From Takakia lepidozioides (taxonomy: Eukaryota > Plantae > Bryophyta): a stretch of DNA of 64,000 nucleotides. The translations under genes and the position numbers were made by a program. The stretch covers positions 18,290,001-18,354,000 of the forward strand of contig CM060734.1 in NCBI GenBank assembly GCA_030704615.1, in the 5' to 3' direction. Below are positions 13,176 to 64,000 of the stretch, piece after piece; the first letter of the stretch is position 1, and each line of letters begins with the position of its first letter. A model generated the notes under the pieces. The model had not been told where the DNA came from, did not search any database, and worked only from the letters and a program-made list of their open reading frames with translations.

Positions 13176-13284
13176 GGCCGCTTGGTTTTTCGGAGAAAAA
13201 CACAGTAAACTGTTAGTTTTGTGGCTGAAGTCCACTTTTAGACATGTTTTTCATGGACTCCTTGACTGCTAGAGGGAAATCGGA

Positions 13285-15289: not shown

Positions 15290-16350
15290 TTTGAAATTAC
15301 GCGACCGCTAATACTACGGTCGCTATTTTTATTTTATTTTATGAAAAACAAACGACCGCCACTACTGCGGTCGTTTTTATTTCCTTTCATTTTGTGTAAT
15401 ATTGCGGTCACTTCTATTTTGTATATTTTTAAATTTAAGCGACCGCCCGTATGGCGGTCGCTATTGTTTTTTATTTCAAAATATAATGCGACTGCCGGTA
15501 TGGCGGTCGCTTCATTTGTTAATATATTTAAAATAAAGCGACCGCCAATATGGTGGCCGCTTTTATTCTTAATATTTAAAAAAAAACGCGACCGCCAGTA
15601 AGGCGGTCGCTTTTAATCTTTATATTTTCAAGTTTAAGCGACCAACTTAATATATATTTTAAAATTGACGCGACCGCCGGTTTGGTGGTCACAAATATTG
15701 TATTGTTTTAAAACAAGCGACCACCGGTGTGGCGGTCGCTTTTATTTTCATATGTCGCTTGTTTTTTTTATAATAATTTTAAATTTACCGACCGCCGTAT
15801 GGCGGTCGTTTGTTTTTCTATATATTTTTTAAATTAAGCGACCGCCCAATGGCGGTCGCTGTTTTTTTTATATTTTTAAAATTATCCGACCGTCCTCGCT
15901 TGTTCTGTACATATTTACAAAATTGTGCGACCGCCAATACGGCAGTCGCTTGTTTTCTTTTTTTAAATTAGGCGACCGCCAATACGACCGCCAATCTTGT
16001 TTTTTTGAAAAAATAAATTGAAGCGACTGCCAAGATAGTGGTCGCTATTTTTTTTTAAAAATTCGAAAAATAAAACGACTGCCAGTGCGACCGCCAATCT
16101 TGCTTTAAAAAATAAATAAATTGAAGCGACCGCCAATATGGCGGTCACTATTTCTTTTTCTATTTCGAAAAATAAAGCGACCGCCAGTGCGACTGCCAAT
16201 CTTGCTTTTAAAAAAAAAATTGAAGCGACCGCCAATACGGCGGTTGCTATTTCTTTTTCAATTTCGAAAAACAAAGCGACCGCCATAATTGGCGGTCGCG
16301 TTCAGTTTGTTAATTTTCAAAATGTATTTGCCACCGCCACCGTGTCGGCG
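15290..16350. repeat. AT-rich region densely punctuated by GCGACCGCC / GGCGGTCGC motifs (TE subterminal-type repeats)
   Basis: More than 20 GCGACCG-type motifs, often as short inverted pairs. The same motif occurs at ~1065-1200, 1585-1650 and 17325-17660. Confidence 0.75.
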
Positions 16351-26820: not shown

Positions 26821-29800
26821 AAGAACCACCGAGTACACTGGTCCTAATCAGAGAGGGAAGATACTTATGTCTCTTCGAGACATGGACAAAGACGTGACAA
26901 GGTCATTGTAAAATTAACGACAAATCGGCCTCATTATCATCCATTCTTCATTCACAAGTCAGCTTTATGACAAATCCCAGACTTCAAAGTCTCTCTGGGT
27001 GGGGGGGGGGGGGGTGGGAAAAACTAGAGACTCGATTACCACTGTTCATAGCAGAAAACCATTGCTCAGCATGCTAAAAAGTGCCATTCATGACATGCCA
27101 TGTCATTCAGTCTGTATTTTTTGGTCAGCTCACATACCAAGGCATAACCAACCATCCTAATTTATCGTTGGCCCAAAAACTAGTATAGTTTTGGGTTCTT
27201 TGTATCATGGGACATACCAAAGTGACTGAGCAGTAAGTATCCGTGTCCAAATAAAGATCCATTGATCACCGTTCATGGCTGGAAATGTCTGTTTGTCTTA
27301 AAGAAGCCATTTATGATCATAGAAGGCTTAAGAACAAAATAAGAGCATTTCTTTACATAAAGAACATCACCAAAGCAGGGTTACGGACTGATATTTGGCA
27401 GCTTATACAACAGGGGGTAATCAGCTGCCCTATTTTGCACATCAAGTCACTTATTGACACCATGTTTTTTGCCCCCTGATCTGTTTTAGATCTGGGGCTG
27501 GTGTGTAATTTCAATGACAGGGTAGAGTAACATTCCCACCTCTTATTCCATGCCCCAAGACCAAGTTCTATGTCTGGGGTAGGGAAATCTTTACCATAAC
27601 AGGCTGTAATCAGATTTACATGCCATGCAATCATCCATAGGAAACACAAAGAATCTGAATTGCTCATCCCATCAGGCCTGCAGGTTACTTTGGTATTATT
27701 TATCCTAAAGCAACTTGAATACAATGCCTGAATCATTCTCTTCCCATCTACCAATGTCTTACCGTTTTGGAAAATAGGTAAACATTCAAGGGCATATAAC
27801 CAAGGACCAGATTTGGCCACAAAAGATCCATCCATATCAGTTTGGCATGGTATCAAGTGTCCTAGAGTAACCGGCTTCTAAAAGAGGCTAAGTTTCCAAT
27901 GCTTGTACATTCAAGAACACTGTCTGGTCATGAAAACAGGTCTGCCCTACATTGTAGCATGTTACCAGATAAATTCTTTAAAGCCATCAGCTTGTCATAT
28001 CATTGCTCCATTGTCACATCAGTATGCCATAGGGAACAAGAGATAGTCGCCCTAATGATTGTCATAAAGTAACAATCAGGAAATCTTATATCAAACTTTT
28101 AGTGTTTACCCACCCCTTGTTTTGGGTAAAACATGTGTACAAAACCAAAGGGGGCAGGTATTGGGACTTAGGTAATGAAGTCTGGCAGGGGTTTACCACC
28201 TGGTTATATTCAGACAAAACATCTACCAGCAGCATATCATAATTGGGTATTTTTTTATGGTGCTATAAAGAGCAAAGCCATAACCAGGAGAAACATAGAA
28301 ACATTTGAGCCAAAGAAATGGAACTCATTCTTATCGTAAGGTATCTAAATCTGACATAAGGCATCGGCTACAGGGGACCGGCAAACAAGAGTAATGTGCA
28401 TTGACCGGATCATGTATTAGGTGTACACGTCTACTCCAGCAAGCTGTCTTACCGAGGCCTAGCTCAAAATTTCAGCATTCATAAGCCCTATAGATGTTCT
28501 ATGCTTATCTCAGGTACCTTCAAGGATGCCTTACTCTCCATGCCCAATTAGCCAACATATTTTTGCTGGAGAAGATCTTACCTTATGAAGGACTTGCTTG
28601 CTCCACACCGTGGTCATGGCGGGAGAGGAGGCTGATATCTCATGGCTTTGGCCTTCCCATTGCCTTGGGTTCATCACTTCAATCAGGAACATATTTGATA
28701 ACCTTTTGTCATGCTCAGACCAAGGTGTTAGTAAATCAAACATAAAACTGAAAACAGAAGGGAGATTGGTTGATAATGTGTACAAGAACCACCAAGTACA
28801 CTGGTCTTAATCAGAGAGGGAAGTAGATTAAGGTGCCTGCCAGAGCACTTGACGTAGGGATCCCCTGCTCCCTCCAAAAGTAGCTGCAATACGTTCGAGT
28901 ACATTTACTGTTTTCACTCACAGGTTATGATGTAAGGCCTGCTGAAAGTCTTCTTAAAACGTAGGCTTCTTGAGGCTCACTAGAGATAACATCAAGCTTT
29001 GCAATTTGTGCACCTCGAGATTTGTTGATGGTACATCTATTCACATTGGCTCTGGTGGGAGCAGTACTGGCGCTGATAGGGGCAGACAGTTTCTCCTTTT
29101 GGGGAGTCTTGCATATGAGCGGGTATGGTTTTTGAGAGGGATGCCTCTGTTACTGCATATGGGGTCCAGACTAACTCAACCTCGAAGTCTGATCATGGAC
29201 TTTTATATATCAAAACCCCAATTTTGCATATCAAATACCCTTACAGGCAGCTGCAGAGCGAGAGATTGCACGTGTTATTTTGGGAGGTATCGTCACAGTC
29301 AAATTTGCTCTTGCCTGTGTTCAAGTGCTGGTATTGTGATTGTTTGGCTTCTCCCATGAAGTGGCATGGTTTGTCTCAGTCAAATGCATGTCTGCTATAG
29401 GTGCCAAAACAGCTTTGCTCTGTGGGGTTTGACATGATGTTCCCACCCTCTGGTTGGAACGGTAGTGTGAGTTTCCTCTTACTTTGCTCCTCTCTTAAAA
29501 GTCAGGGGAAAAGATGTTGCAGAGGAACAGAGTTGGACAGGAGTTTTTTCAATGAACATGAAGTTTGCAAGCCATATGTTTTGATTTAGTCGTTTAGTTT
29601 TTTTGTTGTGCAGATCCAAGCCTGGAATGGGATGTTGCTTTTACTGAGTTTTCGCATCTAGCCATAAGCACATCCTCAACAGTAGGAATTACCGGGCCTA
29701 CGTTCCTGCTGGCTGCAGCCATCTTTGGCTTTGTCATTCAAATAAGCAATCTGGTGGTTGAGAAGGAGCTTAGGCTGCGACATGTAGATGTCTTCGTACC

Positions 29801-42299: not shown

Positions 42300-42779
42300 T
42301 TTGACGCCCGGAATTAGGGGAGATCAAAAAGAGATTTGCCCTTCTTGAGGAGTGGATTGAACTCAACGACCCACAAACTGGAGGGGCATTAGGAAGAGGC
42401 GTCTCCCTCCCTTCCTAAACCCCGATAGGTGCTTTGAGAAGGGACAACGAATTAGGTCCCGGCTATCAGCGGTTCAGGGGTTTAGGCAGTAGGATATAGT
42501 CAATAAAACTAAGACTTGGAAGACAATTGTATGATAAAAACCACATAAACAAACCGTAGGATTTAGGAACGCAATCTTGCCGTGTGAATGAGAACTTGAT
42601 TTCTTCTTTGCCGGTAGAATTAGATCTAGATCAGTAGCCGCCACTAGCATTACCGCGGAACCCCCTGCACTAACCACAGTCGGGTGGGCGGTTCTTGAGC
42701 CCAACCCATTCCGCTACACACCTCAACCCATCCTAGCTAGTATGCCGTCACCCTGACCGCGCGCGTCCAGGGCTCGTCA
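42300..42779 (+). mobile_element. 3' part of an LTR (same family as 60758-61923, opposite orientation); may start near 41111
   Basis: The reverse complement aligns with 60758-61230 and ends GGGCTCGTCA. Confidence 0.8.
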
Positions 42780-47764: not shown

Positions 47765-48523
47765 TTATCGCTGAGACTGGTGTAAAACCAGGGTGGACAA
47801 ATGTACTTAATAGTACTGTAAGGATGTGGGAGACGTTCTTCAACTTATTGCACAAATAGGCGGTGGCTTCTCCGGATCTCTGGATGGTGGGGTGATCCGA
47901 TGAAAATCAATGCCATCGTCGGCAATGGTTCGGCACAACGGACAAATCCTAGGTACGCCACCTGCCACGCGAGATGTGCCTCTAGGGAATACTGCACATT
48001 AAGATACCCCAGGAAGGGAGGTTGGCACCATCCGGGCTAAGGTGTGTTGAACCTGAAAAAAAAAAAAATGGGTGTCATGAGGGCTTTATCCCCCAATGGC
48101 CCTACTTTGGTCGAGATCCAGTACCCCCTGTATGTTTTGGCGATGTCAAGGATGCGACGGCGCATCAACCTGCAAATAACAGTTGCATCTTCTGTCCGTA
48201 CTTCACCAGATCGGGTGCCTGAAATGACACGATAGAGGCCAACTCCGTGCCTCAGAGGACAAATATAATCGATGGGCCTCCATCTGAGTGGCTATGCTGT
48301 ATCTCCATGTTTGCCATGGCGTTAGTACATCTAGGGAAGACTTGACAAAAACCTCCTATGTGAGGGACTTTTAGTCCTCGTTAGCATGTGGTTCTTCAAT
48401 CTTAATATGGTGAAGCAAATTCACAAACAAAATATAAAGCAAGACGTAAGAGAAAATAAGGATGAGAATACACATCGTTAGTTCATCCATGAAAATGTCG
48501 GGAATCCTGACTATTTACTTACA

Positions 48524-48540
48524 TCCCGGCAGACGCACCA
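48524..48540 (-). promoter_or_regulatory. Primer-binding site complementary to tRNA-Gly(UCC) 3' end
   Basis: Plus-strand TCCCGGCAGACGCACCA matches, from memory, the 3' end of plant cytosolic tRNA-Gly(UCC) plus CCA. It lies 6 nt from an LTR end (48547). Confidence 0.75.
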
Positions 48541-48546
48541 TTTATA

Positions 48547-48606
48547 TGACGAGCCCTGGGCGCGCGCGGCCAGGGTGACGGCATACTAGCTAGGAGGGTC
48601 GTGGCA
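48547..48606 (-). mobile_element. 60-bp U5 LTR end of the Gly-primed element
   Basis: Nearly identical to 60758-60813 and to the reverse complement of ~42733-42779. Confidence 0.85.
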
Positions 48607-48691
48607 GAGACCAGCTACAAAAGAAAATGTGCCTATACCCGAGGGGCCTATAACCGTGGGAATTGTCATTTTCAGTTTGGCTAATATGCTG

Positions 48692-48776
48692 TGTCGTGCG
48701 CATACATATCGCTACACAACTACATCGCTGTCCAAACCACACCACACATATATGCACAATAAAGTAGTCTGCCACA
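48692..48776 (-). repeat. LTR segment A, outer copy (85 bp, TG...CA)
   Basis: Identical to 49128-49212. Confidence 0.95.
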
Positions 48777-48777
48777 A

Positions 48778-49125
48778 TGATAAACAACCAACGAACACAC
48801 TGTTGACACAAAACATGAAAACCAAACCATCACTCTTAGAAATAGTAGTCGAACCAGGGGCACCCCAAGCTATGGGGACTCCACCCCACAACAACCTACA
48901 CTCCCATCATGAGCACACTTAGTCCTAAACGATGCAGGAGCTCGGTCGCGCAGGCTCAACTCGAGAGAGATGAGCCGCGCGACGGCCGCTCTCGTGAAGA
49001 TAAGACGGACCAGGTGTCAAACTAAACTTGACACCTGATTTAACACTTGACCTAAATCCAAGTGTTAAATACAAATAACTAGTTTTATTCTAGCTGTTTT
49101 CACATTGTGCTTATTTAACTTGACA
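48778..49125 (-). repeat. LTR segment B, 3' copy (348 bp, TG...CA)
   Basis: Matches 59467-59814 with about 5 transitions counted by eye. Confidence 0.95.
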
Positions 49126-49127
49126 GC

Positions 49128-49212
49128 TGTCGTGCGCATACATATCGCTACACAACTACATCGCTGTCCAAACCACACCACACATATATGCACAATAAAG
49201 TAGTCTGCCACA
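49128..49212 (-). repeat. LTR segment A, inner copy, adjacent to the PPT
   Basis: Identical to 48692-48776 and separated from B by the dinucleotide GC. Confidence 0.95.
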
Positions 49213-49213
49213 A

Positions 49214-49224
49214 TCGCCCCCCTA
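49214..49224 (-). promoter_or_regulatory. Polypurine tract
   Basis: Minus-strand TAGGGGGGCGA, followed by T and then TGTGGCAG, the start of A. Confidence 0.75.
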
Positions 49225-49417
49225 GCTGGTGGATAGGTCCCTCTACCTCCAGATAGCTACAAGATGAAATAGCCACAACCGTACTAAGTCCTCTATCACT
49301 GTCCCTATTGTACTCAAACTCTATAGACCAAGAGGCCGGGTACAAGAGTAGCCCCATCGTTAGTCGCCGTCTTGCAATCTGTGAACTTGAGCCATGATCT
49401 CGTGTGTTCAAGGTCTC

Positions 49418-51964
49418 CTAGTAGCTGGGCCTTGCGTTTCTTGTTAGCCTTCCATGGTTGTATCCACTCCCACTATCCAATGCAATGTGGACATAACCAG
49501 CATGTGCCCACACATCCGGATCGTCAAGGTTAAGAACTGTAGCAGCTTCTCTGCGAATGGATGTAGGCAAATCCGGCTCTTGGCCAAAGAGAAGAAAGTA
49601 TGGTGAGAAGGAGGCAAGTGATGCTTGCTTGCTGAACCTGTAGCCCATGGCTAACCAGGGTAACTGAAGGTCCCAATCTCCTAGGTGTCCCCTCTGCAAG
49701 CCATACTTGCGCAAACCCCTCTTGACTGTCTGAACAACTCTCTCTGCCAAGCCATCGGCCTCAGGATGATCCTGAGAAGTGGTGCGGTGGTCTATCAAGG
49801 CCTTGTCACACAAAGCCTGAAACTCCCCCAAGAACTCTCTCCCTTGGTCCGTGAGTACCTCAGCTGGAGCACCGAATCGGCTAAGCACACAATCCAGGAA
49901 TGCATACGCAGCTCCCTCACTAGCCTTATCAGGCAATGGAACCAATTCAATCCACTTGGAGAAGTGCTCCACCATCACTAACACGTACTTGTTGTGGCGC
50001 ATGGTCAGTGGCAACGGCCCTACAAAGTCAAGACTCCACCTGTAGCCCAATCCCATGATCGGAAGAGGGTGCAATTGTGGAGTAGGGGCGTTGAATGAAG
50101 CACGCACCCTGTCACACACCATGCACCTAGCCACAAATTGTTGCACCTCTGTGTGCATACCACGCCACCAATACTGCCCCTGCAGTAGACTATGGGTGCG
50201 TCGCACCCCAAAATGCCCCAACTCCTCATGGGCATGCCGCACTAACCGTGCCCGCTGTGTTGGGTGAGGCACAATCCTCACTCGACCATCCTCCCACACT
50301 CGGAGCAGGTGTGTCCCCTCCCACCTGAACCTCTTGGCTTGTTGTAGGATCCGATCCCTCTCCTTGGCAGTCACAGTGGCTGCCGTGTCTCCAGTGCGGA
50401 GGTAGTCCAACACAACTGAATCCTCATGTATATCTTTGGCGCCACCTTGCTCATTGTTGGCCTCAGGGTCCTCAGACACTTGATCTACAGTCATCCCTGT
50501 TGCAGGTCCAACCTGGCCTTCCGCTGCCAAGATACACAGAAATGCAGATGCATGCCATCCGGGCACCATCTCCTCGTCCGTCTCACCATGCCACCGAGCT
50601 CCAGTGTCATCCTGTTGGCTCGTGCATGGATTGCGACTCAACCCATCTGCATTGCGATTGACCAAACCCGGTCGATGCACCACCTGAAAGTCATACTCTT
50701 GAAGGATGAGTGCCCACCGTGCAAGCTTCCCCGTAAGCTTGTCTGACTCCATCAACCACTTGAGTGGTTGGTGATCCGTGACAAGGGTGAAGAGATTGCC
50801 GTATAGATAGCACCTGAAGTGTGCCACGGCCCACACTGCAGCTAAGCATTCTCCCTCATATGAGCTATACTTAGACTCTGCAACATTGTTCGAGCGGCTA
50901 GCATAAGCCACTACGAACTCGCTTCCCTCATCATCCACCTGTGTGAGCACCGCTCCAAGCCCCAGCATGCTCCAATCTGTATGCAGCTGAAAAGGACGCC
51001 CCCTGATAGGTCGTCTCAAGATGGGCGCCGAGGTCAACCTCGCCTTGAGCTCTTGAAAAGCTTGTTCTTGCTCATCTTCCCACTGCCACTCCTGGTCCAC
51101 CTTGGTCAGCTTGGTTAGAGCCTTTGCAATGGCACTAAATCCCTTAACAAATCGTCTGTAATAGTTTGCTAACCCCATGAAAGCTCGAACTCGGCTCACA
51201 TCCGTGGGGCGTGGAACCTGTGCAATGGACTCTACCTTAGTCTGCTGTACCCCCAATCCTCCAGGATATATCATGTGACCCAGATACTCAATCTGGTTGT
51301 GGAAAAACTTGCACTTTCCCGGATGTAACTTCAATCCGTGCGTCCTCAAGCGCTCAAATACCCCCTGAAGGTGTCTCTCATGCTCCTCCACCGTAGCACT
51401 AAAGATGATGATGTCATCTATGTAGCACCGAGCAAACTCCACCCCTGCTAGAATCATGTCCATGACTCTTTGAAACTTAGCGGGAGCGTTTTTAAGCCCA
51501 AATGGTAAGAACCGCCACTGGTATAGGCAATCCTTCCCGTGCTCATTGATCCCCCAGAATGCCGTCTTTTGCTTATCCGCCTCCTTGATCGGCAACTGGT
51601 GATATCCGGATCGTAAATCCAACGTGCTAAAGACCTGGGAATGCCCAATGGCATCAAAGATCTCCTCTGGTGTCGGCATGGCATACCTATCGGACTTGGT
51701 CTGACGATTTACAGGCCGGTAATCACCGCACATACGTCTCTCCGTCCAATTGCCATAGACATCCTTCTTGGCTGGCATCACTGTGGCTGAAGCATACTCT
51801 CCACCAGAGAGCTCCACCAAACCTGCCTCCCAGAGATCTTGAGTCCTCATCTGAATCAAAGACCTCTCCATGTCACTGTATCTATAGGGTCTCCGAAAGA
51901 TTGGCGTGTCAGTGGCCAACTCAATACGGATCTCTTGACCCTTCAGTGCTCCCAAGTCCTTCAA
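49418..51964 (-). CDS. pol: Pol: reverse transcriptase, RNase H, DDE integrase
   Basis: RMCGDYRPVN, LDLRSGYHQL, LPFGLKNAP, YIDD; LHTDWS, YEGECLAAVWAV, TDHQPL; HEELGH...CMVC, WSLDFVGP, LTDQG, GLAER. Confidence 0.97.
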   Translation of the reverse strand: MKDLGALKGQEIRIELATDTPIFRRPYRYSDMERSLIQMRTQDLWEAGLVELSGGEYASATVMPAKKDVYGNWTERRMCGDYRPVNRQTKSDRYAMPTPEEIFDAIGHSQVFSTLDLRSGYHQLPIKEADKQKTAFWGINEHGKDCLYQWRFLPFGLKNAPAKFQRVMDMILAGVEFARCYIDDIIIFSATVEEHERHLQGVFERLRTHGLKLHPGKCKFFHNQIEYLGHMIYPGGLGVQQTKVESIAQVPRPTDVSRVRAFMGLANYYRRFVKGFSAIAKALTKLTKVDQEWQWEDEQEQAFQELKARLTSAPILRRPIRGRPFQLHTDWSMLGLGAVLTQVDDEGSEFVVAYASRSNNVAESKYSSYEGECLAAVWAVAHFRCYLYGNLFTLVTDHQPLKWLMESDKLTGKLARWALILQEYDFQVVHRPGLVNRNADGLSRNPCTSQQDDTGARWHGETDEEMVPGWHASAFLCILAAEGQVGPATGMTVDQVSEDPEANNEQGGAKDIHEDSVVLDYLRTGDTAATVTAKERDRILQQAKRFRWEGTHLLRVWEDGRVRIVPHPTQRARLVRHAHEELGHFGVRRTHSLLQGQYWWRGMHTEVQQFVARCMVCDRVRASFNAPTPQLHPLPIMGLGYRWSLDFVGPLPLTMRHNKYVLVMVEHFSKWIELVPLPDKASEGAAYAFLDCVLSRFGAPAEVLTDQGREFLGEFQALCDKALIDHRTTSQDHPEADGLAERVVQTVKRGLRKYGLQRGHLGDWDLQLPWLAMGYRFSKQASLASFSPYFLLFGQEPDLPTSIRREAATVLNLDDPDVWAHAGYVHIALDSGSGYNHGRLTRNARPSY

Positions 51965-52419
51965 ACTGAAGGCAAAACAATTCCTGTAAGCCCTTAGGAA
52001 CCGCCGTATACGTCGTCTCTCTTCTCCGGTGACAATGGGTCCAATGTCAGGCTCCCAATTGTCCTCCGTAACTGCAACCTTAAGTCCAGTGGGCTTAGAG
52101 GTAGAGGACGCGTCCCGTGGTTGCTATGCTGCAATCTCTTGAGCAGTACTCCCTTCCTGCTCAGTCAATGACAAGGCCTCATCCTGCCCCATCATCTCAT
52201 CATTGAGAACCTCCTCATCCCGAGAAGAATCCCCAACCTCATCCATCACAGCTGCCTTGGCTGCCAACTCCCTCTGAACCTCGAGCACCTCCCACGTGTG
52301 CCATGGATGTCTACACCCCGTGGTCCTCACCGGCTCGCCCCTACTCGCTGCCTGTACCGTCTCGGTAGGCAGAGAAACCATGAAGGGGAGTGCACTCCGC
52401 ACTCTACGTTGCTCAGCCA

Positions 52420-53380
52420 TAGCCAAGCTGATAATCCAGGTCAAGCAATTGAGATCCATTGCTTGCCCCAACACCTGACGCCGTGATGCCTCAGAAAGAG
52501 AAGGCACCGCCGTGGTCCAAGTGGAAAACCCCATAGCCCACTCTCGCTCGTCGGCATTAGGCTCCATTAACTACTGCAACTGAGCATCCCACATGAGGCC
52601 AGGTCCACCATCCCGAAAAGCATGGGATCCTGGGAAGCTGAGCAGTGTAGGTAATGCTGCTCGTGGTTGACCCACCCTGTTGACCACTGCCAAAGGCGAA
52701 CGATCATCGTGTCTCACACGTTGAGACTGCCTCCCTGTGTCCAAAATGCTGTCCACTATGAGGTGTGTTGGCCGCTCCACCCCATCAAATGCACGCTTGA
52801 GCAGTGCGGGTGGCATCAAGTTAGTCCACCATAGCCGTGGACGATGAGCCCGTGATCCCACTGCAGCTGCATCCAGCAGCACTGCTGACCCAAGCCACGA
52901 CCGGACTTGATGCACACTGGCCATCACCCTGGCCCGAGAATCGCCCATCAGTGGCACATTCTCTAAGATATATACTGGCGATACAACTTGATGAAGCTGC
53001 AAGTGGCGCAAAATCCGCACCATCTCCCAAAACAGACCCGTCCTCGAGTCTCGCAATCCATTGCCATGCTCGGCTGATGAATGCCCTTGGCAGGGCCAAC
53101 CTGCCACTACCAGATCAATGGAGCCAACCCGCTCCAAATCCTGCGCCCCTAGCAACGCAATGTCTGCTGGCAAGGCCTGCTGATATCCACGAACTGCAGA
53201 CACCGGCAACAACTCAGGGTACTGCTGCAGCATCTGAGCAACATGGTACAGTGAGACGCGTCGTGCAGTCTCATCCCTCTCCACATACAGGTAACGTCGA
53301 ACTCGTACACCTGCCTGCAGCACTGCAGCCAATCCAGTGCTGATCCCGCCAAATAAGTCCAGAAGGCATATGCCTTCATC
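52420..53380 (-). CDS. DNMT3-like C5-cytosine DNA methyltransferase domain of the polyprotein (one in-frame TAG at 52571-52573)
   Basis: Motif I LLDLFGGISTG, II YVERD, IV AGWPCQ (catalytic Cys), VI LENV, VIII RAHRPRLWWTNL, IX EREWAMGF, X RRQVLGQAMDL, in linear order. Confidence 0.93.
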
Positions 53381-53491
53381 CGGCCGCTGCCACACAAGAG
53401 GTGTGGTGTCCAATGGCGACAACTGAGGTTTCCCTGGTGCAATCACCGCACTCTCCTCCTCTCCTGACGGTACAAAAGCTTCTACCCAAGC

Positions 53492-55036
53492 TTATTGCAC
53501 TCGTCTATCAGCAGCTTGCTGCAAATCCTTGCTCGTACCCCACAATGGAGTGTGAGCAACCATGGCAGGCAACTCCACCGTACCATGCATGTCATCCTGC
53601 TCTGCTGGAGGTGGCACATCCTCTGCATGGGCATTGCCTTCCAGCAACTCTCCAGGCCAACTAACTGCAGCTGTGAAGGCAGCTAGTGTTGGTATCTTGC
53701 CCCGCTGGGCAACTGCAATATCCTCAATGAATGTCACAGGGAGCTGTGCACGGCGACCATCCCCTGACTGCCATCCAGGCCTGTAGAATGCTGACTCCTC
53801 CCAGAAGTCCAGGGTGAAGCCCATGGGGTATAACACTGCCCCACCAACGAGGACATCGTAAGAGACCGCGTCTGTCACAATGGCCTTGGCTCGCATTACT
53901 GAGCCATCGATAGGATGATCCGGTTGCAGTCTAATGGCCAACTGATGCCGTGTCATGCCCCGCGCCTGCTCTGATCCTCCCAAAGATGTCTGTATCTGGA
54001 AAGGACAAGGCTCCATATCCGCCTCCATGAGGCCCAAACCTGCAATAGCAGCTCTGCCCAACATCAGTGGCTGAGCTCCCGAGTCCAACAAGACCCGCAG
54101 TGGCCGGTACTTCTTGCCTGCCGGTCCACTCAAAGAGAAAATGTCATCTTGGTTGTCTAACAAGACAACTCCAGGTGTCACCATGGCGCGCTCAAAGGCT
54201 GGCCTAGCTGGCAGTTCCGTCAACCTGGCAGCTGCAGCTTGCCAGGGCGCAGCCGTGGCAGTCTTGACCCTCAAATCCGAGGATCCCTCTGCCACTACAC
54301 CTTCCACTAACTCCGCAGAAGATGAAGTGACCTCCCCACTCTCGCAGAGTGTTGCTGCTAGTCTGAACACTGCAGCTAGTCTTACCCCCGGCGTCGCAAT
54401 CATGGTTGCCGAGAACAGTGGGGCTTGACACACAGAGGTGGCTGCCCCCAATAACACACCGGCTGCACTAGCCTTGGTAGCAGGTGTCAGTGCTGCACGT
54501 GTAGCTCTCCCCAATGACATAGAAACCTCCGCCTTGGTAACAGTCGGGCGAGAACTAGGTGCCATGGATGGCGTTGACACTGTCTCCGCCAAGATGAACG
54601 ACTGAGGCAGCCTTGCCTGACGGCTTGCCTCCCCACGTTGTGGATCCAACTCCACCTCTGCACCTCGTGGCTCAGGAACTCGTGCTGCTCCTCGAGTCAC
54701 GACTGCAGCAGACTCCACCTGCTCTAGTGGTAGTGCTGCTCCGCACATGAATCCCATGCCTCCCATATCTCCTCCCTCAGGAGCAGGAGGTGGACCATCC
54801 CGCCTGGGAGCCGGTACCGCCTGAGCTATAGCCATGGCAGCGAGCCTCTGCTCTAGCTGCTGAAGCCGATTGGCCATGCCTTGGTCAACACCCTGACCTC
54901 CGCGTCCTTGGCCATGTTGAGCTTGCCCTTGGCCTGCACCTCGTGCCCGACCACCTCGTCCTCTCTGGGTTGGTCCACCTCGCCCCCGGCCACCATTGTT
55001 CCCTTGGAAATGTCTTGGGCGCAACTCAGGATGCAA
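53492..55036 (-). CDS. Gag C-terminal RGG-rich region and aspartic protease
   Basis: RVLLDSGAQPLMLG and YDVLVG; same reading frame as DNMT and RT. Confidence 0.85.
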   Translation of the reverse strand: MHPELRPRHFQGNNGGRGRGGPTQRGRGGRARGAGQGQAQHGQGRGGQGVDQGMANRLQQLEQRLAAMAIAQAVPAPRRDGPPPAPEGGDMGGMGFMCGAALPLEQVESAAVVTRGAARVPEPRGAEVELDPQRGEASRQARLPQSFILAETVSTPSMAPSSRPTVTKAEVSMSLGRATRAALTPATKASAAGVLLGAATSVCQAPLFSATMIATPGVRLAAVFRLAATLCESGEVTSSSAELVEGVVAEGSSDLRVKTATAAPWQAAAARLTELPARPAFERAMVTPGVVLLDNQDDIFSLSGPAGKKYRPLRVLLDSGAQPLMLGRAAIAGLGLMEADMEPCPFQIQTSLGGSEQARGMTRHQLAIRLQPDHPIDGSVMRAKAIVTDAVSYDVLVGGAVLYPMGFTLDFWEESAFYRPGWQSGDGRRAQLPVTFIEDIAVAQRGKIPTLAAFTAAVSWPGELLEGNAHAEDVPPPAEQDDMHGTVELPAMVAHTPLWGTSKDLQQAADRRVQ

Positions 55037-55039
55037 GTC

Positions 55040-56295
55040 ATAACACTGGGCATCTCCATGCCCAAACTTGCCACAATGCCCTCACTGCAACTGTGCAGGC
55101 TGTGCTTGTGTCGGCCTTCTGCCACTCTCTGGGCAATCTCTCTTGACATGGGGTCCTCCACATGTCCAATATATCACCCCTGGTTGCTGTTGGCCTGCAA
55201 AAGATGCCACGGGCCTCTGCACCTGAGGTCCCCTGTAAGCTCCATGGAACTTGGGCTGGGCAACCTTGCCCCCCTGACCACGCTGTTGGGCAGTCCCTTG
55301 TGCCTGTGGGCTGACAGTTGTGCCCCGTGTAGGCATGTCCTTGCCAAATCCAATTGTAACAACTCGCTCCTCCACCATGTTGAGCTCAATCCGCTCAGCC
55401 AGCAGAAACACATCTGCTAATGTGGGTTGGGCTGCTTGTAACAGGGTTGCATCTCGCACCCTTCTCTTGAGCTCCTTGTCCAGAATTCCATACCAAAACT
55501 GGATTGCCTGAGCTTCAGTAACCCCTTGGGTCACACTTATCAAGCGCCTCATACGAGTGTACGCCTCTCGCAGGCTCTCACTGGGTTTGCGCTGGAAGTC
55601 TTGCAAACTTCGCAGCTTCTCTGTCCGTATACCTTGGTAGTTCCTCCGCAACTCCTGGAAGAACTCCACCACCGGGTTGAATCTAGGCACATGCGTTGCA
55701 GTCGTGGCAGGAGGAGTAGTAGCACCTTTTGAACTGGTACCACCTACAGAAGTACCAGCACTACTTGCTCCACTACTGGTGCTGGCAGTGGGAGCTATTG
55801 GTACTGATGCAGCTACTGGTCGCGTCGTGCCTTGAGTAATGGAGACGTAGTTAGGTGACCAATACATCCTCCACTCCTCAATCTCTGCTTCATGTCCTCG
55901 CCTGAACTCGTGGTAATTGTCCATAGGCGGGCCATGAATGGGGTGAATAGCTGTGGATTGCGCATCTGCTGCAAATCACACCAGCTGTCGAACTCCTGAA
56001 TAAAGTCATCCAACTCGATTGTGCCCACAGCTCCAGAGTACCTACGAGGCCCCTTGGTAGCTCCATACATCTCCTCCATGTCGTCCCACAACAATGGCGA
56101 ATGAAAGTGCACACCTGTTGATGAAGCCTCCGAGTCTGTGTCTGACTCTACAGTAATTGAGGGTGGCGGTGAAGGTGGTCTGAACGGAATACCTCGTCTT
56201 GTGAACCCACTCTCAGTGTTACTGCCTGTAGCTGTACTCCCCTCAAAACCCTTGGGTAACTCCGTAATGACACTCACAATGTGCACCTCCTCCAC
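55040..56295 (-). pseudogene. gag: Gag (frameshift near 55925, mutated zinc knuckles)
   Basis: YSGAVGTIELDDFIQEFDSW...FQRKPSESLREAYTRMRRL...FWYGILDKELKRRV. Knuckles read IYWTCGGPHVKRDC and Q*GHCGKFGHGDAQC. Confidence 0.85.
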
Positions 56296-56930
56296 GTGAC
56301 ACTATAAGGCTCTAGTACTAATCTAATAGTGACACGGGTGGGCACCTGTTGCAGTTTAAGGGTCATATCCCAATGGCTCAGGGCACCTGCACCTGCATCC
56401 ACCGCAAGAACTCCTATGGTTGGCTGGTCATCAACCCAGCCTCACCATAGAAGAAACACTGGTGGTCTTGCTGGTCATCACTCCAGCCTCACCACCGACA
56501 GCATACTCTAGGATTGACCGGTGATCAAATCCGGCCTAATCCCTATGAAAGCAAGCGCCCACACAAAACCAACATGGCGCACAGTCAAGCATGCAGGTGT
56601 TGGGGGGATCCAAACACAAGAAATCAAAACATCAACACCCCCACACCAAAATCCAGCAGCAACGCTGATCCTGCAGAATATCCCAGCCCAAAACCCCGGA
56701 CTGACTGGCCTCCACCAAGAGAGGCTTTGGCAACTACAAGTATAAGGTAATGAAAATAGTACAGAGATGGAGGGGAAGAATAGAAGCCCGCCCAAGCAAG
56801 ATCTAATCCTGATCTATGCTATCAACTTCCAGACTTCTCTCAAAGTGCCTCGCTCTGCTTGATGGTAAGGTGTAGGAGGTATATCTATGTCCAGAAACCT
56901 GCCACTAACCTTGTCCCAAGCTACAGTAGC

Positions 56931-57560
56931 TCACTCTAACCAACCCTCCTCCTCTTTCTGCCAGGTAGCGACAAAGCAATACTCCCCTATCTCCCGCTCA
57001 CTGAACACTAAAGAAAACAAAGGTAGGGTCTGATAGTCTCTCAAATCGAAAGCTTTGAGACGGTTGCGGGTGTCCTCATTGCGAATGACTGCATCTCCTT
57101 CACGCACAACAAACATGTCATTGCTGATGAACCCCCGCTCGTGGTTGCCCTGTGCACAGTGTATCCGGCTGCAACCGTGTCTGATTGCACAAACTTGTGT
57201 AGCTCCTGCTCCTCTGCTCCAGTACACCACGGCCTTGTGGCTGAACACCTTGGTCCCCGGGGCTGTCTTTGGCTGTGTTCCAAGCCTAGCTTTCACCCAC
57301 TTTGGTATTTCACCTACAGCTGCAGAACTGCTGGCTCCAACAGAGTTCTGACTGTCCAAGGCGATATTGAGGCCCTCAATGCCAACAGCAGTCTGTTGTC
57401 TACTGCTAATGCCTGACTCCCAGTATGCAATCAACTCATCCAACTGTTCTCCACTCAAATCAGTCTGAGTTCCTTGGGAAACATAAATCCTGTCCCCTTG
57501 TGTGCACAGGCTAAGAGAAGAGACATGCCCTTCAATTACGTCCTCATTTCCCCCAGCCAT
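56931..57560 (-). CDS. Extra ORF (209 aa) upstream of gag, unknown function
   Basis: ATG-initiated open ORF in the element's sense orientation with protein-like composition. No motif recognised. Confidence 0.55.
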   Translation of the reverse strand: MAGGNEDVIEGHVSSLSLCTQGDRIYVSQGTQTDLSGEQLDELIAYWESGISSRQQTAVGIEGLNIALDSQNSVGASSSAAVGEIPKWVKARLGTQPKTAPGTKVFSHKAVVYWSRGAGATQVCAIRHGCSRIHCAQGNHERGFISNDMFVVREGDAVIRNEDTRNRLKAFDLRDYQTLPLFSLVFSEREIGEYCFVATWQKEEEGWLE

Positions 57561-58285
57561 GCAAGGAGTACATCCATTGATTTATGTCTCATGTAGACCA
57601 CAACAGATTCTGGACACAGAATTGTGGATATTTTATAGCACACTCACACTCTAAAAATTCCACAGATTTTTAGCAGAGTCCCCAAAACAAAAACCAGGTG
57701 TAGATATGTAGATTTCCTCTTTCTGCAGCTATCCACCCAAAAACTGAGTCAAACGGAGTCCATTTGACAAAGTTATGACCAACCAGGCTCTAAATCATTT
57801 AAATTATATCAAAGTTTTTTTTTTTTTTTTTAACACCAAAACGTTCCCGCCATTAAGAACCGTTCCCAGGTTTCATTTGTGGTTACAGGTGCACCACAGA
57901 CTTGCTCGCTTAGTGAGCTGCTTTGCTCCAGCGACGACTCTCGAGCTCGGGTGTATGGCTATGGCGATGGTGATGGCCTGTGCAGCGTCAGGCATCTGTT
58001 TCCCGTGATGCAAGCACTCGAGCCATCCCTAATGCAGGGACAAGCCCTGATGATACTCTGTCAGAACCTGGTGGGCAGCTGCCATCTGCACTTGCTCTCT
58101 CTTCAGACAATCTTCGGACCTAGTGTCAAATGTGGAAGTGGTGAAGGAGCTTATTGACAAAGGCAACTGTGTTGGACTATCCACAGAGTAGAGAGTAACC
58201 AGATCAGCTTCGTCATTTAGTTGAAGCTTGGAGCATAGGTCTGCATACTCCGATAGGGCAAGGCACTATCTCAATTCAGGTAGCG

Positions 58286-58504
58286 ATCATGTTCGCTTTG
58301 ACCTCCATCAAGGGAGTGGGGCGCCGTTTCGCTAACCCGGTCTGCAAGAAGGCGGACGTCGACACCAGCAAGAGAGCTGGTGAGCTGTCGGGTGCGGAGC
58401 TGGAGAACTTGATGGTGATTGTCGCGAATCCCCGGCAGTTCAAGATACCTGACTGGTTCTTGAACAGGAAGAAGGATCACAAGGACGGACGTTATTCGCA
58501 GGTC
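58286..58504 (+). pseudogene. RPS18: Captured fragment of 40S ribosomal protein S18 (uS13), antisense within the retrotransposon leader
   Basis: [73 protein letters not shown] corresponds to about residues 26-98 of plant RPS18. Both termini are missing. Confidence 0.93.
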
Positions 58505-59452
58505 AAACTTTCTTCCAGACTGATCCAGGTCCTGTCAGTCCAAGTAAGTAACCTCTTCTAGAGGAGAACTAAAAGAGATTACGGGGAGGTAGGTTACATA
58601 TGCACACAACTGGAGCTGGAACACCTGCCCTCCTGATCCACCCCCACCATAACCTCGATAGGCAGAAGTAGCAGGGTACGGGTTTCCAATTAAGCCGTAA
58701 TTCAGCTTCGAAGATGTTCAACTAGTGAAACACACAGCAGCTAAGAAAGATGCAACTGATGAAAGCCCTGCCACTCCTCACACCTCCACGCTCCCGGCAT
58801 GCCCACCAAATGAAGACCTGGAAACAATATCGATCACCCGGCAACGTAACCCTGCAGCTTAAGCGACTGTCGACCATATAACGGCTAGCCAGTCAACGCA
58901 ACGAGCTCCGCCCTGCTCTGATCTGCCAAAGAATCTTCACCTATTCATCCTTTGCACTCCCAGGGTAAGACGAGACGAGCTAGTCCGTGGCCTGGGCTCC
59001 CTCCGCTTCAGGATTGTTGATCAAATGCAGCACCTTGGTTGTTGACCGGTCATATTCCCCGTGTCCTAGCTTGGACTCCAAGACTGCAAGAGTGCAGGTA
59101 TCAGCGTTCACCGCTTGCCAGCGCTGCTCCATGCTGCACGGTAGAGCTTCTCTATAAGCTTACTAGGGAAACAATCATCCAGCTTCAAGGATCACGCATA
59201 GGTGCCAACTAGCATTTGCTGCTGAATTTTTAAGTCTCTCCTCGTGTACTCCAAAGCCTCTGGTGACTTGGTAGCTTTAGCGACTGCAATAACAGTGGCG
59301 GCTCCGGCATCGTCATCCTCCAGGCGTTTCAGGGCACGCTGAATCTTGTGATCACATTCAATGATATGCTTCTCAAACTAAGCACTACTTACACACAGGT
59401 AATCTTGCAAGTGCTAACCCTCAACTCCTACCTTGCACTCACAGGTAAGAGA

Positions 59453-59466
59453 TCATCTCTCTCGAG
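59453..59466 (-). promoter_or_regulatory. Self-complementary primer-binding site
   Basis: Plus TCATCTCTCTCGAG abuts the 5' LTR and is the exact reverse complement of CTCGAGAGAGATGA at 59649-59662 inside the LTR. There is no TGG-starting tRNA PBS. Confidence 0.85.
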
Positions 59467-59814
59467 TGATAAACAACCAACGAACACACTGTTGACACAA
59501 AACATGAAAACCAAACCATCACTCTTAGAAATAGTAGTCGAGCCAGGGGCACCCCAAGCTGTGGGGACTCCACCCCACAACAACCTACACTCCCATCATG
59601 AGCACACTCAGTCCTAAACGATGCAGGAGCTCGGTCGCGCAGGCTCAACTCGAGAGAGATGAACCGCGCGACGGCCGCTCTCGTGAAGATAAGACGGACC
59701 AGGTGTCAAACTAAACTTGACACCTGATTTAACACTTGACCTAAATCCAAGTGTTAAATACAAATAACTAGTTTTATTCTAGCTGTTTTCACACTGTGCT
59801 TATTTAACTTGACA
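59467..59814 (-). repeat. LTR segment B, 5' copy (no A segment beyond it)
   Basis: Direct repeat of 48778-49125, followed immediately by TSD GCTG. Confidence 0.95.
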
Positions 59815-60129
59815 GCTGCATTTTCCAATGAAACCGACGCTACTGCCAATCTTCTGCGGCTTGTGCTGCTATAAGTCAAAAGACACTACGTTCTTGGAAT
59901 GTTATACTTGACCATATACAAGCACAACACTGAGCTCATTTTAGAAGCATATTAAGAAATGCGGACTTTCAAGCATACAATGGACGGTGTAGTCAATGAT
60001 CATACTCATCTGTTTCAATTATGCATACAGCCAAAACACCGGATCGAAGTCGAAAAGCAAGTTTTGCAAAGTGCACGTGGTCCTGCGCTATATGCTAGTA
60101 TCCCGTTGCAGAAGAGTATCGATCTTGTT

Positions 60130-60757
60130 TTAACTCAGAGTGGCTTGGTGAATATAGAAGTCTCGTTTGGGATCACAAACCATCCTCCTCACAAATATAT
60201 AATATAAATGCTTGCATGGGACGAATTTGCCTCTTTTCCCAAGACTTGTTGACATCGTGCTAACAAAATCGGGACACGTGCAATTGAGAAAATTGGACAC
60301 TGAAGTGTCGTATGCCTTGTCTTGCAAAGCTGATGTTGATGTCATTATTGTGTACACCCGACCATATCCCGGATCCGGAACATCCATCGTACCTGCAGCT
60401 CGAGCCTGAAGCATTCTTACAGATTCCACCTTACCAAAGTGTTCTGCAGTAGGAAACAACCAACATGTCGGCCAGTGGTAAGGGCATATACCCTCTTACG
60501 AGTGGTTGTGGGTTCAAACCACCATGTTGGTTGTTACAAAGATGTCCACCTTCCTATCGGAAGGCAGTAGCCCTTCTGGGTCAAGTGACACCATAAGTTA
60601 CGCTTGCTTCGGCAACGCGTCCACCCTTTTTTTTTCTGCAGTAGGAGGGAAACATCGAACAACCTTCCCATTCCGTTTGGTGGGATGCGAGTGAGCTCCA
60701 AGAGGAGGCACTCAAGAATCACCTGATTTCACAGCACCTATAGAGACAGTGGCCCGT
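60130..60757 (-). pseudogene. SWIM zinc-finger protein fragment (possibly MULE-related), cut by the LTR at 60758
   Basis: NCTCPDF...PCKHLYYIF (CxC...CxH SWIM motif). The upstream part contains stops. Confidence 0.7.
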
Positions 60758-61923
60758 TGACGAGCCCTGGGCGCGTGCGGCCAGGGTGACGGCATACTAG
60801 GAGGGTCGTGGCAAGTTGCAGTGTAGGTTGGGCGAAGAACCGCCTACCCGGCTGCGGTTAGTGCAGGGGATCCGCAGAGTGCTAATGGTGGTCAGATGCA
60901 ATGTCTAATTCCTACCGGCAAAGAAGAGTTTAACTTCTCCACTTCGCAAGGCGATTTGCGTTTCATATGTTCTACGGTCTTTTTACGGGTTTTAGTCTTT
61001 ATTTCTCTTTCGAGTCTTGGTTTATTTACTAACTCCTAATGTCTAAGCCCACGAGCCACTTATAGCCAGGATCTCGTGATGTCCCTTCACAAAGCACCTA
61101 TCAGGCTTAGGGAAGAAATGGATGAATTCCCTCTCCCTCTGCCCCTCCGCTTCCTAGGGCTTGAGTTCAAGACACCCTTCCGGAAGGGTTAATACTTTGT
61201 TGCGCACCTCACTTCGGTAAGCTCCCCTTCAAGTCATAGTTACTCGCTTTGATGCGCGCGCCTAACTCCCTAACTGGCCGCCGGGCCAACTCGGAGCTTC
61301 GGCTGCTCCCCGGGACATAACGGTCCCCCTTTACTCCTCCACAAGACCCTCTCCCAATTTGGGCCTAGTGGAAATTCCCTTTGGTCGATGGCAGTCCGGA
61401 ATAGCTCCCCACACCTTAGTCGCTTTCCGGCTCGCACACTTACTCACTAGTTTTTGGTCACCAACGGGCTTGCACCGTTCTCGGGGTTACTACTCCCTAT
61501 ATATACTTTTGTGACTGTCCGCGGGGGTTCCACAAACAACACCACCATTTTATGGCGAACCACCACGAAAACCCTCGATTCCCGGTGATGAGTCGCGGTG
61601 AGTCTTGGCCCACCCACCACGATCCCCTTGGACCGTGATGAGTCCCAAGACTCCTCACGACTCCCACCACAAGGTCTCCGCCCCCATGGTGAGTACTATG
61701 TCACCCCCACTAAGTCCCACTAAGCTACCACCACCCCTCGTGGAACCACCCCCACCGCAACCCGGTGTGTGGGGCTCCACCTAGTGAGCGCCTCCGCCTC
61801 CTTGAGTGCCTTGGGCACTCAAGGGTGCTTCAGCCCCCGCATCTATTGTTGTCACTGCCCCTACCACAGGGGCAGCCCCTCTCGTGTCCCAACCCCCTGC
61901 CCTCAAGGCAAAGGGCCGCGACA
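60758..61923 (-). mobile_element. 3' LTR (~1.17 kb) of a Ty3/Gypsy element
   Basis: Ends TGACGAGCCC...GGGCCGCGACA form an imperfect TIR. A PPT-like GGTAGGGG lies adjacent on the minus strand at ~61926-61935. Confidence 0.7.
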
Positions 61924-62039: not shown

Positions 62040-64000
62040 TGACAAAGAACCAAACCCCCACTTGACTCTACTCTCCACTAGCTAGTTCGGCCGACTTTCT
62101 CCAAGTCCCGGCCAAGGGCGGAGCTTCTCAAGCTCCTCCCAGTGCACTCTTCTTGACCCACTTCAGGGCCAAGGAACGATCCTCCCCGAGGATCGAATCG
62201 CCTTACTACAACAACATTTGCTTACGACCGCTCGTGATGTCGCTTTTGGCATCACCTTGAGCAAGGGTTCGCCTTGAACCCTTTTTTTGACTACGAAGAT
62301 AACCTTGAACCAACCGTGCGTTGCAATCACTACAGTTGGGTCCGCCTTGGAATGCTGGCCTGAGGTACGGGAACACGCCGAAGCCGCACTACGACTTCGT
62401 CCCGAGGCTACACGATTATAGTACGTGAACGGAAGCACGTAGCTTCCGCGTTAGCCCGCACTACAAGGCAATCCCCTCGGTAGCGCAGTTATAGTACGCG
62501 CACGTGCCAGGTGCGCACTAGCACGTGAACTCCCAACGAAGGTGCAAGTTTCCTGGCCCCTTGGGTGGGAGTCACCCGATTTTGGCACTACACAAACACA
62601 CGATTAATCCAATTTACCTCTCCCACTTTGTAAGCTTAGCATGCATTCTACACACTAGCCAACCATACCATGCATCACCATTCCAAACAAAATAGAACGC
62701 ACAACATTTGGAAACCATTTCATTTATAACAAAATTTGTACAATACAAGTTTTTGCAATCGGATTCTTGAGCTAGCTAAGCCGGGCTAAGCATGCATTTC
62801 CTCCCCCACGCTCCAAAGTTGATATCCTCATCAACGCTTCTTCCGCTTTTGAGGTCGCCCTTCAAAAGCTGCAACCGCCTCGTTTCCCATTTCTGAGGCA
62901 CGCACCCAAGATGCCGCCACATGATGATAGCCCTTCCATTTCACGAGATACTCCGTTTCTCGATTCTTGAACCTCCTCGACTTAAGCACTCCCTCCACCT
63001 CGTACTCAGGTTCATTTTCATGATCCAATAGCACAGGTGGCGGACGCAACACTTGATGCCGATTCGGACGCGCTTCATCTTTGAAGTAAGGCTTCAAAAT
63101 GGAGACGTGGAATACCGGATGCACCTTGCTGTTTGCCGGCAGCTCCAATTAATACACATCCTCATTCATAACCTTCCGGATGCGAAAGGATCCAGCATAC
63201 GGAGGTACGAACTTCGGACTCACTTCCGGAGGTAGTCAAAAATTCTTGATGTTCAACCAGACCTCTGTGCCTGCCTCAAACTTAACCTCCCTCCGCTTCC
63301 GATTTGCCTGCCGTTCATACCGTTTCATAGCTTTGGCAATGTTGTACTGTACGAGCTTCAACAAACGCTCGCGTTCTTCCAGCACTGCCGCTGCTGTCGG
63401 TTCCTCAATGTCCTGGGCGGCCCAACTTGTCGGCACCAAAGGTGCTTTTCCATAGACCAATATGAAGGGGGAAACTCTCGTTGCGGAGTGTTTTGTGTTA
63501 TTATAACAGAACTCTGCCGCATCCAAGTGCTCCACCCTGTCCGATTGATCCGCCGACACATAATTCTGCAAGATCTGCTTCACCACGGAATTCACCCTTT
63601 TCGTTTGGCCGTCCGTCATAGGTCGGAAGGCGGTGCTCATTTTGAGCCTCGTCCCCATTTTCTTCCAAAGTACCCTCCAAAATTTACTAGTAAACTTTGG
63701 ATCGCGGTCCGAGACAATATCCTTCGGGAGTCCATGATGCTTGAAGACGTGGGCGAAGTAAAGTCGCCTCGTCTCCTGCGCCGTTGCCGTCTCCTTGGTG
63801 GGGATGAAACGGCCCATTTTGCTGAACCTATCCACCACCACCATGATTGCATCGAATCCTTTTGACAACGGCATAGCAGTCATGAAGTCCATCGAGACAC
63901 TTTTCCAAGACCCCTCTGGAATCGACAAGGGTTATAACAACCCCGCTTGCTTTTTGTACTCGCTCCGGTTTTGTTGGCATGTGGTGCATGTCTTGACATA
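62040..64000 (-). mobile_element. Chromovirus (Ty3/Gypsy) 3' end: integrase, chromodomain, PPT, probable 3' LTR 62040-62796; continues beyond the window
   Basis: WKSVSMDFM...VVVDRFSK...IVSDRD...TDGQTKR (INT, E changed to K); HPVFHVSILKP; EYEVEGVL...YLVKWKGY (chromodomain); PPT GGGGGAGGAAA at 62797-62807. Confidence 0.9.

Follow-up and report, generated by a model that had tools for sequence, protein, structure and literature searches.

In its textbook form, integration by a DDE integrase needs the processed ends of a linear complementary DNA (cDNA), and circles in which two long terminal repeats (LTRs) lie end to end (2-LTR circles) are usually a dead end for retroviruses. A foamy virus study reportedly adds a further retroviral case of cleavage at a palindromic LTR-LTR junction to that of HIV-1. 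According to the text of PMC1905944, tetramers of HIV-1 integrase cut such a junction in vitro after CA, on both strands, and whether LTR circles can be real retroviral precursors has long been a matter of debate (PMC1905944, PMC4372172). Split direct repeats are described from the PAT-like and Ngaro elements, which carry a tyrosine recombinase and for which a circular intermediate has been proposed (PMC7192593). For KnitGypsy-Dnmt3 of Klebsormidium nitens (de Mendoza et al. 2018), the legend of Fig. 4c gives a repeat arrangement as in a DIRS element (PMC5890265), and a 'Gypsy-DNMT3' of streptophytes is named in a 2026 preprint, the accessible text of which does not describe its ends (10.64898/2026.05.21.726589). 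Here we describe a Ty3/Gypsy element of Takakia lepidozioides (Bryophyta) that occupies the minus strand of positions 48692-59814, between two copies of GCTG, in a 64,000-nt stretch of contig CM060734.1 (hereafter the window, to which all positions refer). With a probability of about 0.8, judged from its sequence and that of its relatives, an inner palindrome instead of the cDNA ends would be the attachment (att) site of its integrase, at which copies start and end.

In element orientation the layout reads TSD-B-PBS-internal-PPT-t-A-gc-B-t-A-TSD (TSD, target-site duplication; PBS, primer-binding site; PPT, polypurine tract; A and B, the two parts of the LTR). On the 5' side, a 4-bp TSD (59815-59818, GCTG on the plus strand) is followed by the 5' B copy (59467-59814, minus strand), which has TGTCAAG at its outer (5' integrated) end and no A upstream. 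At the far side of the internal region lies the PPT AGGGGGGCGA (49214-49223, minus strand; at the equivalent position in relatives), and behind it a single T (49213), the internal A copy (49128-49212, minus strand), which is the head of the LTR as set by reverse transcription, the dinucleotide GC (49126-49127), the 3' B copy (48778-49125, minus strand; 348 bp, presumably U3 tail, R and U5, as deduced from the self-priming site), the single T of the B-t-A joint (48777, minus strand), identical to the base between PPT and A, and an 85-bp terminal A copy (48692-48776, minus strand), with ...CACGACA at its outer side as the 3' integrated end according to both the sequence and the contig ends of sequencing run X1. 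The second TSD copy (48688-48691, again GCTG on the plus strand) closes the element; both copies were assigned from the sequence and the TSDs of relatives. Self-BLAST of the window, which also identified the T of the joint, returned 48692-48778 as identical to 49128-49214 (87/87 bases) and 48778-49129 as 98.6% identical to 59467-59818, with 5 mismatches in 347 between the two B copies. The LTR of reverse transcription is A (85 bp) + gc + B (348 bp), i.e. 435 bp. An earlier, sequence-only reading of the window had proposed this permuted order, the 435-bp LTR with a 5' copy lacking A and an extra, identical A at the 3' end, a perfect palindrome on the A/B boundary and the retention of the single T in B-t-A; all of it, coordinates included, held in the sequence check and the self-BLAST, and the B/A joint is a cDNA end-to-end joint. 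Neither an empty paralogous site nor a further copy of the element's clade was found within the 64 kb. The copy itself is a young but damaged Gypsy element of a plant lineage.

The palindrome GACAGCTGTC (GACA-GC-TGTC; 49122-49131), the putative att site, occurs once in the window. Perfect 10-bp palindromes are common by themselves (91 of the 63,991 window positions), and this one is noteworthy because it is placed exactly on the A/B boundary and is conserved in relatives. These relatives comprise 83 loci, i.e. the best 80 of 571 metagenome matches plus three loci from genome bins, the classes of which were tallied by hand. The boundary CGACA-GC-TGTCA is retained in 27 of 27 insertions examined, from five LTR families; six columns of this 12-mer are invariant, and every other change except one is C>T or G>A. 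The length of A ranges from 85 to 180 bp across the five families, and the reference units of the window and of families f1 and f2 gave no match to the A of other families at E 1e-4. The cDNA ends behind the PPT (TTGTGG, ATACATG, GTTTGG or CTTGAG by family, TG-like in the window and f1) vary among families and are therefore not conserved att sites. The outer ends are TGTC...GACA, with the central 2 bp lost, when C>T and G>A decay is allowed for. Among the 15 copies with both ends, an exact 4-bp TSD is present in nine and one with a single transition in four, lengths of 3 and of 5-8 fitting worse than 4; the exact TSDs of the relatives are of seven different kinds (AAGG, CATA, ATAA, ATGT, TACA, CCAA and CAAT). 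The earlier claim that the integrated ends are exactly CA and TG, with GC lost and a 4-bp TSD, is thereby confirmed, TGTC...GACA ends with a 4-bp TSD being found in 13/15 two-ended copies. Read in element orientation, the TSD of the window is CAGC, the four bases with which A+gc terminates, and locus L035 has a decayed 7-8-bp duplication (2869-2876, 11939-11946) with a CAGC-like end that resembles it; these two may reflect a mild preference for targets similar to the att site.

An A-B-A 3' end is found at 36 of the 83 loci (28 independent insertions, eight same-flank pairs having been merged) and a single A followed by flank at 19 (16 independent insertions), while a full AB followed by host flank is found at none. 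The other loci consist of one deletion ending in part of B plus A, three that break off inside A, two with A and part of B only, two that read A-B-PBS and are likely collapsed, and 20 in which no 3' repeat follows the integrase. Each of the 16 independent 5' ends, that of the window included, begins at B without an A match upstream. The two-ended elements are nine B-int-A-B-A and five B-int-A (int, internal region), with no B-A-B-int-A and no AB-int-AB, and L080 is a solo B-A with its own TSD. B-int-A is a second common product, overlooked by the sequence-only reading, and carries a TSD at L015, L023, L024 and L046. The surmise of the sequence-only reading that the layout might be family-wide was borne out in these loci, where ordinary AB...AB copies are absent and A does not appear as an independent mobile unit, every lone A seen sitting behind a PPT. 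Run X1 carries the same organism label as the window and may be the window's own sample; in it, 38 contigs with unlike flanks (agreement 0.36) end exactly at the outer end of A. B-A joints are present in three contigs of run X1 and one of run X5. Of the genome-bin loci, L081 and L082 are clade members of plant type inside a cyanobacterial bin, which is probably contamination; the two 106-bp A copies of L082 are identical, and that family is therefore young, while L083 has no palindrome or LTR. Viral contigs searched with integrase alignment A1 gave no match, and those searched with alignment A3 gave 66 distant reverse transcriptase (RT) matches of 24-38% identity. L019 and L081 (A-gc-B-PBS-5'UTR, with a 127-nt terminal overlap in L081) were considered as circles and discounted as possible assembler collapse.

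The PBS (59453-59467, minus strand) is a 15-nt complement of 59648-59662 (minus strand), which corresponds to positions 153-167 of B and is the predicted 5' end of the transcript. Self-priming of the Tf1/Tcn1 type is therefore predicted, with the 5' end of the RNA as its own primer; an RNA starting at the predicted site folds with the PBS paired (z -2.8; 2 of 200 shuffles equally good). This type of priming is known from the Tf1/Sushi and Tcn1 elements (PMC6317226). An exact self-priming match of 10-17 nt lies at the equivalent place in 10 of 18 rows checked (L002 being the same as L004), and the remaining eight have a shorter match, one of them being a solo B-A without PBS. One presumed-RNA contig, from run X7, covers 49134-49324; the contigs are uninformative on RNA ends.

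With the inner palindrome as att site, a replication cycle can be proposed. Transcription would start inside the 5' B and the RNA would prime itself, upon which ordinary reverse transcription would yield tA-gc-B-int-tA-gc-B. An integrase tetramer would then cut after CA, on both strands, in the palindrome of the left LTR, and the resulting ends (recessed CA-3'OH with 2-nt 5' overhangs) would be inserted with a 4-bp stagger. Such ends are the normal processed state for DDE integrases. Host end-joining would unite the real cDNA ends to B-t-A, either before insertion (giving a 2-LTR circle) or just after it, and repair of the staggered cut would remove GC and leave the TSD. The left LTR would be preferred if plus-strand strong-stop DNA makes it double-stranded well ahead of the completion of the right LTR, and integrase loads there, a timing argument that is our own and that we consider likely. 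B-int-A could originate from a 1-LTR intermediate, from A-A annealing in repair or from later recombination; it is predicted to be a dead end because the repeated R region is missing, whereas B-int-A-B-A is predicted to be able to regenerate the same cDNA. The widest form of this proposal, in which the att site was shifted to the inner palindrome in an old and widespread clade of DDE-integrase LTR retrotransposons from bryophytes and green algae, which replicates solely by internal cleavage and end-joining, with 1-LTR and 2-LTR circles as normal precursors and the left LTR chosen by integrase loading during reverse transcription, is put forward tentatively, at just under even odds.

Two orders of events are compatible with cleavage at the inner palindrome. 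In the first, the substrate has to be a closed 2-LTR circle, with the palindrome as the point of opening, while 1-LTR circles lead to B-int-A. A 2-LTR circle opened in its 5' LTR would give exactly the common product, the four B-int-A copies with a TSD are exactly opened 1-LTR circles, the B/A joints are ragged, and HIV 2-LTR circles can, by the text of PMC4372172, feed integration, so that this order is quite possible, if short of probable. However, the 9 vs 0 outcome is left unexplained by a circle that is complete and free, since such a circle has two equal palindromes and both products would be expected, and no circle was observed in this analysis. Of the earlier proposal that the integrase cut an internal att site in a circle, the palindrome as att site is supported (by the ends and the 4-bp TSD), while the closed 2-LTR circle is no more than a candidate substrate, given the 9 vs 0 outcome and the fact that linear or nicked cDNA gives the same product. 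In the second order, the cDNA is still linear or nicked when the integrase cleaves the palindrome of its left LTR, keeps hold of the two new ends and inserts them, after which the host closes the chromosome break left between the ends of B and tA. A single event would then suffice for both products without a closed circle (end-joining giving B-int-A-B-A, A-A annealing giving B-int-A), which would explain the frequency of B-int-A (16 vs 28 independent insertions) and agrees with a left LTR that becomes double-stranded early; at L079, a deletion of B stops where a short stretch matches the beginning of A. On the other hand, a chromosome break would be risked at every insertion, no flank-derived filler was identified at the joints, where insertions resemble duplications of B itself, and nothing in the present sequences orders the steps; we regard this order as possible but rather doubtful. 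Between circle-first and insert-first the balance is about even.

The two A copies of one insertion are informative on how the terminal A arises. In 13 insertions of family f2, transversion and indel alleles are common to both copies: at three allele columns, 12 carriers form six full pairs, six form three and four form two, and none of the listed alleles is restricted to the terminal-A or the internal-A class. The transversion distance is 0.012 within a copy vs 0.022-0.023 between copies, and the distance among terminal A copies is as large as that between them and internal copies (0.023 vs 0.023). Because the two A copies co-vary within a copy, it is likely that both are made from one template in each cycle, although gene conversion could also have caused this. 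The B/A joints are composed of bases from both the PBS and the PPT sides, with 1-3 nt of variation and some deletions or short duplications, which would fit a fresh end-to-end joint each time; their raggedness resembles that of HIV 2-LTR junctions, where perfect joints make up about 52-58% according to the text of PMC1905944. It has to be weighed against this that the B-t-A end might be copied from a read-through transcript, with the internal A-gc-B as the template that restores the circle junction, as proposed for split-repeat elements with a tyrosine recombinase. The layout matches the split direct repeats of PAT-like elements (PMC7192593, PMC5890265, as far as their text goes), and most joints are alike within a family. 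Still, such copying is unlikely, since the joints differ between copies, the terminal A tracks its own partner and not the other terminal A copies, and ordinary LTR reverse transcription suffices, with a canonical PPT before the internal A and a PBS after the 5' B.

A number of observations weigh against the inner palindrome as att site, or against the cycle built on it. L030 and L035 (2/15 two-ended copies) are without a 4-bp TSD, and the 5' junction of the window, taken alone, could be microhomology, although the differing 4-bp TSDs of the relatives would favour a plain TSD. The relatives are old copies on metagenome contigs and were selected on integrase similarity. The 0 vs 9 ratio of B-A-B-int-A to B-int-A-B-A (two-sided binomial P = 0.004) counts here too, as does family f1, in which six insertions gave no regeneration signal, all distances being equal. 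The B-int-A copies of f1 look older than its A-B-A copies (P = 0.02, with one outlier at 0.445), with no age difference in f2 (P = 0.41); some B-int-A copies may be later deletions, and they could also be the result of short-read assembly collapse. No contig of the sequencing runs searched spans the element locus, the loose-end contigs (21 of 129 rows) hold no row for flanks at the outer end of B, and ordinary copies are possible in the window's own genome. The steps of the cycle (transcription, reverse transcription, cutting and joining) are ones that we infer. Against this background, a one-off aberrant integration, or an assembly artefact, in an ordinary AB...AB family would agree with a locus spanned by no long read or single contig and with a TSD that resembles the palindrome, but it is very improbable and is contradicted at the family level by the 28 independent A-B-A insertions with differing flanks in other assemblies, none of them ordinary, and by the 38 unlike flanks at one base in run X1.

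The protein-coding regions place the element. The pol open reading frame (ORF; 49418-52123, minus strand) encodes RT, RNase H and integrase (HHCC zinc domain; D699, D759, E794), with the Pfam order RVT_1, RT_RNaseH, Integrase_H2C2, rve, and the triad D699-D759-E794 has D-D(34)-E spacing and is conserved in the integrase alignment. Directly before it lies a stop-interrupted C5 cytosine methyltransferase region (52124-53491, minus strand; PF00145, E 1.1e-11) ending in TAG CAA CCA, preceded by a gag and protease region in three broken frames (53492-56301, minus strand; weak PF03732 match, E 5.7e-4, and tblastn match to ORF1 of L019). Beyond 49508, most of the integrase C-terminal domain and the PHD finger are deleted, and the match to a full-length integrase ends at residue 420/591. 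With gag fragmented, the methyltransferase interrupted and the integrase C-terminus lost, the window copy is defective. This damage and the methyltransferase, like the self-priming PBS, go beyond what the sequence-only reading had noted. The PF00145 methyltransferase is present in the window, L019, L046, L054 and L060. That insertion is the work of a tyrosine recombinase, either provided in trans or since lost by the copies, is hardly conceivable, for although split repeats are otherwise typical of such elements (PMC7192593, as far as its text goes), no tyrosine-recombinase family matched in the 65 ORFs scanned (9 + 56, the second batch being 56 of 161 listed ORFs; all 29 window-element ORFs of at least 90 aa and both ORFs of the near-intact L019 are covered), and the variable 4-bp TSDs and the central 2-bp loss fit DDE chemistry.

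The nearest named homologs are from the liverworts Calypogeia, Riccia and Marchantia, followed by Klebsormidium and Closterium. A quick tree built from 112 RT-RNase H rows (L015 and L063 omitted as too short; L072 and L064 ignored as frameshift-distorted long branches) places the window in a PHD- and methyltransferase-bearing clade of 97 rows (SH-aLRT 99), outside which the chromodomain-bearing rows branch. Families f1 and f2 form separate deep branches in a 73-row group with Klebsormidium rows (support 91, branching unresolved), and the permuted layout is therefore likely to be old, as far as this tree suggests. Three Klebsormidium pol proteins, which may or may not be those of KnitGypsy-Dnmt3, belong to the 97-row clade. 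By its proteins, the element is a Ty3/Gypsy of the methyltransferase- and PHD-bearing green-plant clade. The two full identical LTRs at the ends by which Ty3/Gypsy elements are recognised are found neither in the window nor at any of the 83 loci; the element is a variant in its end structure and is assigned to the superfamily by its proteins.

In 16/37 rows, some of which are one insertion, a stop codon with CAA or CAG directly behind it occupies the equivalent place between the methyltransferase frame and pol (window 52118-52126, minus strand, L019, L081 and f1 loci); family f2 is without this motif. TAG CAA CCA resembles the leaky read-through signal UAG-CAR-YYA, and pol may be produced by stop-codon read-through. 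Upstream of gag, a 216-aa open frame (56931-57581, minus strand) has no Pfam match and no tblastx match in L001-L083. The 5' region of the element also contains, in antisense, a coding fragment of ribosomal protein S18 (58199-58561, plus strand; PF00416, E 1.5e-22), which is followed by an A-run near 57813-57831 (minus strand) and looks like a captured or retroposed piece.

Elsewhere in the window, a tandem unit of ~1 kb is present in at least seven copies at 18100-26900, with part of the array inverted (19128-21110 vs 21149-26688), and two tandem arrays with periods of 85 bp and 96 bp lie at 12189-14281. AT-rich DNA at 15284-16271 holds ~13-16 short hairpin units (GCGACC...GGTCGC) at ~50 bp spacing, and a similar motif is also found at the ends of L019. 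The flank at the 3' end of the element (48510-48660) is itself a repeat with raised depth; 26 contigs of run X4 have unlike flanks at 48547, and partial copies lie at 42728-42779 and 60758-60813. On the other side, an ORF at 60130-60495 (minus strand) with a weak SWIM zinc-finger match (E 0.009) is possibly from a Mutator-type transposon, and an integrase of an unrelated retroelement (24% identity) at 63143-64000 (minus strand) is cut by the window end.

The phenomenon is genuine, extends across the clade and is unusual in its mechanism. In this natural clade, each copy seen has been inserted through the inner palindrome. If the palindrome is indeed the att site, the ends of reverse transcription and the ends used by the integrase can be uncoupled, split direct repeats can be obtained without a tyrosine recombinase, and a direct test system is at hand, in which one defined integrase acts on a site of 12 bp and the two products can be counted. 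Programs that detect LTR elements by their paired LTRs will overlook this high-copy family or date it wrongly, and its B-int-A copies have no terminal repeats whatever. Paired LTRs were required in the survey of Neumann et al. 2019, which would miss such elements for that reason (PMC6317226).

Of the described elements, KnitGypsy-Dnmt3 is like the present one in its Gypsy domains, its C5-methyltransferase and its DIRS-like repeats (by the figure legend and not by element sequence), and no palindrome, TSD, primer, second product or mechanism appears in the accessible text and supplement of PMC5890265. The name 'KnitGypsy' was found in one paper only, and no description of the palindrome or the mechanism was found in a literature search with thin coverage of subscription journals and Repbase reports. 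The earlier characterisation of the replication cycle as undescribed consequently stands for the mechanism and not for the DIRS-like layout, which had been remarked upon in that legend. With ordinary Ty3/Gypsy elements, in particular the self-priming Tf1/Sushi and Tcn1, the element shares the PR-RT-RH-IN order, a DDE integrase, a PPT, a self-priming PBS, TG...CA ends and a short TSD (by the text of PMC6317226), but its integrated ends differ from its reverse-transcription ends and there is no full LTR pair. Unlike in the chromoviruses (Tcn1, Chlamyvir), a PHD finger and not a chromodomain is found in the relatives, which form a separate branch in a tree that does not include the named reference lineages. 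The PAT and Ngaro elements have the same succession of a first repeat, the coding region and a second-first-second repeat. In contrast to DIRS, PAT and Ngaro, the present element has a DDE integrase and no tyrosine recombinase, a PPT and a PBS, and variable 4-bp TSDs instead of their site-defined short overlap, seven different exact TSDs occurring besides that of the window. The likeness to HIV-1 lies in an integrase that cuts after CA in a palindrome within continuous DNA, and in cDNA joints that are partly imprecise. In retroviruses, however, the cleaved palindrome is the end-to-end joint itself, the cut restores the normal linear order and the route is a side route, whereas in the clade of the window element the palindrome has a fixed place inside the LTR and is distinct from the end-to-end joint, which does not serve as att site, and every copy seen has taken this route.

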